A stretch of 64,000 nucleotides of DNA, taken from Shigella phage Sf16. The DNA is taken from the sequence record MF158043. The stretch is one strand, 5' to 3'. The position numbers and the translations under genes were made by a program. Each line of letters opens with the position of its first letter. The first letter of the stretch is position 1. The notes beneath the pieces are model-generated. The model was given only the letters and a program-made list of their open reading frames with translations. It made no database searches and was not told where the DNA came from. Below are positions 16,821 through 16,848 of the stretch, piece by piece.

Positions 16821-16848
16821 TTAAAGAGTTCTTACGAGTATTCTTTAA
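16821..16848 (+). ncRNA. conserved-loop hairpin (loop GTTCTTACGAG), copy 1
   Basis: Stem TTAAAGA/TTCTTTAA; second copy at 19999-20027 with covarying stem. Confidence 0.4.

Follow-up and report, generated by a model that had tools for sequence, protein, structure and literature searches.

We analysed a window of 64,000 nucleotides (nt) of Shigella phage Sf16 (sequence record MF158043) and studied two short hairpins, HP1 and HP2, in its array of tRNA genes. The array comprises 25 tRNA genes detected by ARAGORN, all on the plus strand and spanning positions 16042 to 21116. FelixO1-like phages (Ounavirinae) match the 5.3 kb around the hairpins; there are 355 matching phage records in all, and the closest are Citrobacter and Shigella phages of the genus Mooglevirus with 97–98% identity. 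The window itself is assigned to Mooglevirus. Among relatives the array is a mosaic in which HNH endonuclease genes and tRNAs have been gained and lost. A promoter scan detected strong sigma-70-type promoters of the array at 15895, 15985 and 17543, and a terminator scan detected only one canonical terminator downstream of it, at 21274–21291. The array thus appears to form a few long untranslated transcripts that would need processing. The hairpin module is co-transcribed with the tRNAs, on the plus strand, in this predicted polycistronic precursor.

Two hairpins with a common core

HP1 and HP2 each fold as a hairpin of 10–12 bp that is closed by a UACG tetraloop of the UNCG type (Table 1). HP1 lies in the 450-nt spacer from tRNA-Asp to tRNA-Lys. 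Its fold has an energy of -13.3 kcal/mol (z = -3.7), and two of its 12 stem positions are G-C pairs. HP2 fills the 31-nt spacer between tRNA-Gln(CUG) and tRNA-His, and its stem consists of 10 uninterrupted bp, two of which are G.U. A sequence-only reading of this DNA had placed both copies between tRNA genes; this is strictly true for HP2, whereas the HP1 spacer also holds other structured non-coding elements.

The same reading described an identical 11-nt loop core in both hairpins. The 11-mer, GTTCTTACGAG, indeed occurs exactly twice in the window (16828–16838 and 20008–20018, both on the plus strand), and the complementary arms quoted for the two copies are present in the sequence. However, the 11-mer is mostly paired: it covers the 5' side of the upper stem, the tetraloop and two bases on the 3' side. 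The shared element is therefore not a single-stranded recognition loop but an upper stem with a UNCG-type 4-nt loop.

When the 28-mers of HP1 and HP2 are aligned on the loop, 20 of the 28 positions are identical. Two pairs show compensatory differences (A-U to G-C and A-U to U-A), from which we conclude that the two copies are paralogues. The 3' upper arm reads AGUAU in HP1 and AGAGU in HP2. Several hundred pairs of identical 11-mers are expected by chance in 64 kb (by arithmetic), so a repeated 11-mer alone is unremarkable. The joint event of hairpin geometry and shared 11-mer is rare, though: in 60 dinucleotide shuffles, pairs of same-strand hairpins with 12-bp stems, 4-nt loops and a common central 11-mer averaged 0.03 per shuffle, with a maximum of 1. 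HP1 and HP2 are the sole pair of this kind on the plus strand of the window.

Table 1. Positions of the hairpins and of neighbouring features in the window
Feature	Position	Strand	Description
HP1	16821–16848	+	UUAAAGAGUUCU[UACG]AGUAUUCUUUAA; 12 stem positions, one U.U mismatch
HP2	20001–20028	+	Continuous stem 20003–20026, UAAGGGUUCU[UACG]AGAGUCCUUA
HP3	17738–17801	+	6 + 10 bp lower stem (AACAUU.CUAAAGAGCA ... UGCUCUUUAA.AAUGUU), 32-nt branched apex
Small G+C-rich hairpin	16802–16815	+	GGGCU UUUU AGCCC, directly 5' of HP1; from the fold of 16768–17217
Promoter	17543–17571	+	TTGACA-17-TAAGAT, sigma-70-type; promoter scan
Conserved non-coding RNA with tmRNA-like tag frame	17543–17737 region	+	HP3 is its 3'-terminal hairpin
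Y1	16207–16281	+	Repeat motif
Y2	16370–16441	+	Repeat motif
Y3	16850–16931	+	AGAAGRCCnnnTACAGCAA ... GGTCTGGT; bulged stem, from the fold
Y4	16939–17070	+	Repeat motif, permuted tRNA-like domain
Ro60-like gene	14461–15876	+	DUF2828 + DUF7788
tRNA-Gln(CUG)	19923–19998	+	ARAGORN; Rfam tRNA, 61.7 bits
tRNA-His	20030–20106	+	ARAGORN; Rfam tRNA, 49.3 bits

Conservation and covariation of the hairpins

A scan anchored on the tRNA-Gln 3' end and a protein-anchored locus search gave only seven close relatives each, and relatives were therefore taken from GenBank phage records. The block that contains HP1 (16795–16900) is about 90% conserved in 241 phage records. HP1 is a conserved island between variable stretches of the spacer; the sequence just upstream is unrelated between genomes. 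The HP2 region is 93–100% identical in 249 phage records, which makes HP2 the best conserved copy.

The claim that the two stems differ yet stay complementary is borne out by an alignment of 12 distinct paralogue and orthologue sequences. There, 90.3% of the cells of the 12-pair hairpin are paired, compared to 40–62% when the 3' partner is slid, and four of the 12 pairs are changed on both sides. The covariation score of this hairpin was reached by none of 500 shuffles. In a variant survey of 33 sampled genomes, the A7-U22 pair of HP1 is replaced by G-C in eight Felixounaviruses, and there are single G.U, A.C and C.U intermediates; HP2 variants in relatives include a change from G.U to A-U. 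In the loop, UACG gave way to UGCG in one genome for HP1 and, independently, in three genomes for HP2, and to CACG in a single case. Such independent A-to-G changes in both paralogues are what a freely variable N of UNCG would produce.

The hairpins are specific to one strand. With R1, a covariance model built on the 12-sequence alignment, HP2 scores 56.7 and HP1 55.0 bits on the plus strand, compared to 18.8 bits on the minus strand, where G.U pairs become mismatches; everything else in the window reaches at most 17 bits. Among these weak matches, 13980–14003 (16.8 bits) is a different palindrome upstream of an open reading frame (ORF), and 50025–50052 (13.1 bits) lies inside an ORF on the opposite strand; both were rejected. 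HP1 and HP2 are conserved structured RNAs on one strand and in one register with compensatory changes, and what evolution preserves is the pairing, not the loop sequence.

The loop resembles that of UNCG tetraloop hairpins in that U-N-C-G caps a regular helix and varies mostly at N. It differs from the extra-stable cUNCGg form, as the closing pair is U-A instead of C-G in all copies and one relative has CACG.

Further copies at other junctions

The motif search of the window and of relatives that had been suggested as a check yielded a further copy in the Erwinia phage phiEa104; HP1 and HP2 themselves are conserved in about 240–250 phage genomes. In phiEa104 (Kolesnikvirus), of which about 81 kb were searched, R1 finds one copy with 47 bits (L027 6622–6657, L027 being the tRNA-array locus of this phage), whereas it finds none in Pectobacterium phage Arno162. 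The Erwinia hairpin, CUAAAAGGUUCU[UACG]AGAGUCUUUCAG, has the same 16 apical nt as HP2. Its upper-stem and loop bases (GGUUCUUACGAGAGUC) are identical and its lower stem covaries (G-C to A-U). It ends 6–8 nt ahead of tRNA-Leu(CAA) and forms the final hairpin of a promoter-led non-coding RNA (ncRNA), which shares about 80% identity with window positions 17573–17707 over 136 nt.

The homologous ncRNA in the window ends in a third hairpin, HP3 (-21.9 kcal/mol), which aligns with the Erwinia hairpin and ends 3 nt before tRNA-Arg(UCU) at 17805. HP3 is a diverged positional homologue of the hairpin family. At this site, many Felixounaviruses have a perfect 16-bp hairpin, AUCUUUAAGGGCUUUC[UAA]GAGAGUCUUUAAAGAU, that is clearly related to HP2. 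The HP3 stem of the window type covaries among relatives, from AGAGCA/UGCUCU to AGGGUA/UACCCU. The HP3 variants reveal that the family keeps its stem and tolerates wholesale change of the apex; the tetraloop is not essential, as HP3 uses a UAA triloop or a large insertion. Together with the variable loops, this triloop or 32-nt expansion suggests a structural rather than a sequence-read element.

Every copy ends 1–8 nt before the next structured RNA. This neighbour is the element Y3 for HP1, tRNA-His for HP2, tRNA-Arg for HP3 and tRNA-Leu in the Erwinia phage. The gap between HP1 and Y3 is a single A (16849), with the outer stem of Y3 starting at 16850. In the Ounavirinae, duplication or relocation has brought the module to three or more different junctions. 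The small G+C-rich hairpin just upstream of HP1 is less well conserved than HP1 in the alignments. A G+C-rich hairpin also precedes HP3 (17710–17737) and the Erwinia copy (L027 6590–6617), which results in a tandem of two hairpins.

A scan of IMG/VR with GTTCTTACGAGAGT returned at least 120 matches, nearly all of them chance matches in unrelated contigs, lacking extended pairing and nearby tRNAs; the real matches belong to Felixounavirus-like and Erwinia-phage contigs only. The hairpin has no match in 5,426 E. coli genomes, and a host origin was therefore rejected. Dispersed repeats akin to repetitive extragenic palindromes (REP) or miniature inverted-repeat transposable elements (MITE) were rejected as well, given two strong matches in 64 kb and one in about 81 kb of phiEa104, all in the tRNA array. 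Rfam has no match at HP1 or HP2, even at E-values up to 5.

The tmRNA-like RNA that ends in HP3

The ncRNA that ends in HP3 contains a frame resembling the tag of transfer-messenger RNA (tmRNA). The frame (17623–17658), ...AAAAAUAAAU|GCA AAC GAU AAU GUU UUU CUG GCA GUA GCU UAA UAG, encodes ANDNVFLAVA and closes with two stops. A start codon is absent, and the frame lies in a tmRNA-like resume context, AAAUAAAU|GCA AAC GAU. For comparison, the E. coli ssrA tag is ANDENYALAA. Across 23 Ounavirinae loci the frame is conserved, most changes being synonymous, stop-to-stop or in the middle of the tag, and the Erwinia phage version reads ANDAQFLAVA with two stops. Downstream of the tag follow a hairpin with the stop codons and a pseudoknot that is supported by a compensatory change (CCAA/UUGG to CCGA/UCGG). 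The Rfam model tmRNA_permuted aligns the resume-codon region below threshold (34.7 and 17.5 bits), ARAGORN calls no tmRNA, and no tRNA-like domain for this RNA was found in the window. In an exhaustive survey from 2014, mycobacteriophages and Bacillus phage G were the only phages listed with a tmRNA (PMC4131195).

In phiEa104, an unannotated RNA of about 170 nt (L027 6249–6416, 5' end GGGUGAUUCUG) directly precedes the promoter of the tmRNA-like RNA. Its T-arm (GGUUCGAAUCC) is canonical, its 3' acceptor strand matches and continues into G-CCA, and an insertion of about 100 nt lies between. Instead of G3.U70 it carries G2.U71, and neither ARAGORN nor Rfam gives a match. This RNA may be a tRNA-like-domain partner or an interrupted tRNA.

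The Ro60-like gene and candidate Y RNAs

Just upstream of the array lies a gene whose product is about 34% identical to a mycobacteriophage 'Ro-like RNA binding protein'; a phmmer search of this Ro60-like protein against the PDB gave no match. In the Felixounavirus Bas63, the Ro60-like gp130 is encoded directly upstream of the tRNAs and is reported to counteract the ppl defence system; the authors of that study suspected Y RNAs among the 'tRNAs' (PMC11482910). In the window, four tandem Y-RNA-like elements (Y1–Y4) share an invariant AGAAGRCC...GGUCUGGU, the first about 330 nt downstream of the Ro60-like gene. They form a bulged helix with a 4-bp outer stem, a 5' AGA bulge, a 7-bp inner stem and a 3' G bulge. 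In this helix, 99.5% of the cells are paired and five pairs are changed on both sides. Y4 encloses a T-arm, then a closed acceptor-like hairpin, then a D-arm. It shares this order with the YrlA RNAs, whose permuted tRNA-like layout has been described (PMC4201824). The Rfam model YrlA detects neither Y1–Y4 nor the hairpin sites. Judging from sequence and predicted fold, we regard Y1–Y4 as candidate Y RNAs.

A proposed junction hairpin in the tRNA precursor

The hairpin defines a small, so far unannotated RNA family, ordinary in kind: a structured element in the spacers of a tRNA operon. As for its role, we propose that HP1 and HP2 are RNA-level junction hairpins for the maturation of the polycistronic tRNA/ncRNA precursor, a reading to which we assign a probability of roughly 45%. 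The hairpin would keep the spacer from pairing with the adjacent tRNA or ncRNA and thereby insulate it. Furthermore, it would supply a structured neighbour for cleavage by RNase E in flanking A/U-rich single-stranded nucleotides; alternatively, it might serve as a short target of RNase III. Once RNase P has cut the 5' end of the downstream RNA, the hairpin could stay on the upstream RNA as a 3' cap against 3'-to-5' exonucleases. The tmRNA-like RNA, whose last hairpin is HP3 or its Erwinia counterpart, would gain most from such a cap.

A/U-rich linkers of 1–8 nt (e.g. AAAU, UAAU and CAGAUUGAAU) do adjoin the hairpins. The cleavage of tRNA precursors has been found to depend on adjacent structured units, and tandem structured elements were proposed as a general requirement (Clarke et al., PMC9841416); E. 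coli RNase III contributes to the maturation of T4 tRNAs (PMC4810235). The hairpins resemble the E. coli RNase E substrates and the RNase III case of T4 in that they lie in spacers of a multi-tRNA transcript, beside A/U-rich single strands and a tRNA. In E. coli tRNA precursors, however, the structured neighbour is usually another tRNA, and in the phage the cleavage is only predicted. Compared to the spacer elements of tRNA precursors, the hairpins form a dedicated, duplicated family that also flanks RNAs other than tRNAs. In phiEa104, a RegB-like endoribonuclease, a polynucleotide kinase and a tRNA nucleotidyltransferase are annotated (L143 4761–5925; L144 25877–27145); such RNA-processing and repair enzymes could act on the array transcripts.

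Several observations weigh against a role in maturation. The stems (10–12 bp in HP2, 12 positions with a mismatch in HP1, 16 bp in HP3 of many Felixounaviruses) are short compared to canonical RNase III substrates, which have roughly 20 bp, interruptions allowed. HP2 is flanked by two ordinary tRNAs, which are structured neighbours already. Related phages make tRNA-His with spacers of 3–15 nt and no hairpin; thus, the hairpin is not needed for this tRNA in general. Distant genera share all 16 apical nt, a degree of sequence conservation beyond that predicted for a purely structural role. In addition, the covariation rests on few independent compensatory events, as the sequences come from closely related genomes or are paralogues, and the literature searched yielded no RNA ends or cleavage sites for these phages.

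Alternative explanations

The identity of the apex can be read differently, and the sequence-only reading had indeed expected a protein-binding or processing motif. The apical GGUUCU-UACG-AGAGUC might be recognized by a phage or host factor such as the Ro60-like protein or an enzyme of tRNA processing or modification, since the 16 apical nt are the same in HP2 and the Erwinia copy while the surrounding RNA is only about 80% identical. For the Ro60-like protein speak the position of HP1, 1 nt from a Y-RNA-like element, the start of the array after the Ro60-like gene, the reported anti-ppl activity of the Bas63 protein with Y RNAs suspected among its 'tRNAs' (PMC11482910), and a loose likeness of ACGAG to the Ro60-binding motif (G)NCGAA (PMC4201824; PMC12135203). 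However, the hairpins are plain local hairpins and not the bulged helix of 5' and 3' ends that characterizes Y RNAs. In phiEa104, the hairpin is present, whereas tblastn found no homologue of the Ro60-like gene in bases 1–81000 (96%) of the 84565-base genome and L027 has no Y-like repeats. This suggests that the hairpin does not depend on the Ro60-like protein, as far as the searched 96% of the genome are concerned. Furthermore, the loop varies (UACG, UGCG, CACG), the apex of HP3 is wholly replaced, and HP1 deviates from HP2 in the 3' upper arm; for an RNA as the binding partner, the window contains no complementary sequence. We thus consider a specific binder unlikely.

It is likewise improbable that the hairpins are functionless relics of duplicated or shuffled tRNA or ncRNA modules, for instance of a decayed tRNA arm. 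The mosaic array with its gained and lost HNH genes and tRNAs would supply such debris, some related phages lack HP2, and the 5' half of HP2 resembles variable-loop/T-arm sequence (GCAACTTATCAGGGTTC vs GCCACTTCTAAGGGTTC). Yet the pairing is kept by compensatory and G.U to A-U changes, HP1 is conserved between variable flanks, the hairpin is kept in about 250 genomes and across genera, and neither ARAGORN nor Rfam detects a tRNA signal. A present-day tRNA or tRNA fragment was rejected on the same searches, the only likeness being that of GGGTTC to the 5' halves of T-arms.

Instead of marking junctions, the hairpins could be integral domains of the ncRNAs, with HP3 and the Erwinia copy as the 3' hairpin of the tmRNA-like RNA, HP1 as a 5' domain of Y3, and HP2 as a stranded duplicate. 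Consistent with this, HP3 and the Erwinia copy do terminate a conserved promoter-led ncRNA, the one nucleotide between HP1 and the Y3 stem would allow coaxial stacking, and the G+C-rich hairpin stands ahead of HP1, HP3 and the Erwinia copy alike. However, HP2 has no such ncRNA neighbour and is still the best conserved copy, and Y1, Y2 and Y4 have no such 5' hairpin, which leaves this explanation rather doubtful.

A more far-reaching idea is that the hairpin is a recognition or processing tag common to the tRNAs, the Y-like RNAs and the tmRNA-like RNA, read by a specific host or phage factor that coordinates their maturation or loading, or that HP2, excised as a 31-nt RNA, acts as a functional small RNA or decoy. 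We regard this as speculative and give it little weight.

At the DNA level, the hairpins might be recombination or shuffling joints, or nuclease sites, between array modules, as the same 16–22 nt occur at three junctions of a mosaic region. T4-type phages have promoter-stem-loop cassettes that offer an analogy. The substitutions, however, fit RNA pairing on the plus strand, G.U included, no promoter is attached (nothing promoter-like lies within 40 nt downstream), each genome has only two to three copies, all inside the array, and the HNH gene insertions of relatives are not at hairpins. A DNA-level element is thus very unlikely.

Least plausible is an intrinsic terminator or attenuator inside the array, despite a stable hairpin in an untranslated operon and a 'terminator' annotation of HP2 in one GenBank record (Citrobacter phage Michonne). 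The hairpins are intergenic like Rho-independent terminators, but their stems are A+U-rich, no U-tract follows (HP1 is followed by AAAGGAGC, HP2 by AAAUGUGG), and the terminator scan lists neither. The real terminators of the phage (21274–21291, 63928, 10786) have G+C-rich stems, UUCG loops and T-runs, and tRNA-His, tRNA-Phe, an ORF, tRNA-Ser and tRNA-Cys, tRNAs that look essential, follow HP2 with no intervening promoter-like site.

Further identities were rejected. With its 10 nt, the HP3 3' arm UGCUCUUUAA equals the beginning of the E. coli rrn boxA (UGCUCUUUAACAA), and like the boxA-boxB elements of rrn and lambda the arm follows a strong promoter within an operon that is not translated. 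However, only the HP3 of the window matches the boxA core GCUCUUUA (TGCTCTTTAA at 17786), and there it is buried in a stem. In relatives the arm reads UACCCUUUAA (TACCCTTTAA) and the opposite arm compensates, so that pairing persists while the boxA sequence is lost; in HP1 and HP2, no more than 6–8 of 13 positions agree with boxA. The sequence UACGAGAG (HP2 20013–20020; L027 6638–6645) is presumably identical to the core of the sarcin-ricin loop of 23S rRNA, with a possible C-GAGA-G tetraloop, which we judge to be a coincidence: HP1 lacks the second half of the motif, and the G.U to A-U change favours a simple helix. Lastly, a 36-aa ORF with a TTG start covers HP1 (16796–16906; a hypothetical protein in one record). 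It has no Pfam match, and its frame is broken by indels of 1–2 nt among relatives.

Other observations on the window

Close to HP2, position -1 of the phage tRNA-His (window 20029–20030) is U and not G, as we read the acceptor stem. Several GenBank records flag this tRNA, which lies 3 nt downstream of the HP2 end, as pseudo or OTHER. Elsewhere in the array, ARAGORN missed a tRNA-Tyr-like gene (16599–16686, plus strand) with anticodon GUA, a long variable arm and a CCA end; Rfam gives it only 22.8 bits, and relatives label it tRNA-Tyr, pseudo or OTHER. Between an HNH endonuclease ORF (17896–18243) and tRNA-Ser, the region 18361–18490 (plus strand) contains a promoter-like TTGACA-N17-TAAGCT followed by a tRNA-like sequence of about 85 nt (AUGGGAC ... 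GGUUCGAAUCC ... GUCCCAU G CCA) that is called by neither ARAGORN nor Rfam. A Cys-rich ORF of 70 aa (…CGCCAAHDGEEDYYKWRTDHRKR…) at 19513–19725 (plus strand) extends into tRNA-Arg(ACG), which starts at 19675; Pfam gives no match, and relatives annotate the ORF as a hypothetical protein.

Outside the array, the script used for the shuffles also reported a 'five-copy hairpin' on the minus strand (574–3188). This is an artefact: on the plus strand it is a repeated cassette of 5' untranslated region (UTR), Shine-Dalgarno sequence and ATG. Five such cassettes, ending in ...CAATCCTAAACTGGAGAATCT(G)AAAATG (Shine-Dalgarno sequence and start codon), lie at approximately 560–590, 890–920, 2140–2175, 2420–2455 and 3170–3200 in the plus reading. 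Three of the five share about 40 nt more upstream (AAGCCCCAGATAAAGAGCTTTACCAACAATCC). The cassette is a repeated 5' UTR ahead of early genes.

Implications for FelixO1-like phages

A role of the hairpins at RNA junctions would help to explain how an untranslated transcript of 5 kb, containing about 25 tRNAs along with several other RNAs, is processed into stable products. The hairpin is also useful as a marker: the same module ends an RNA that carries a tmRNA-like tag frame and, next to a Ro60-like gene, adjoins one of the four candidate Y RNAs. The RNA boundaries that it indicates make two questions testable: which RNAs are partners of the Ro60-like protein that the phage encodes, and whether trans-translation is disturbed or exploited by FelixO1-like phages.

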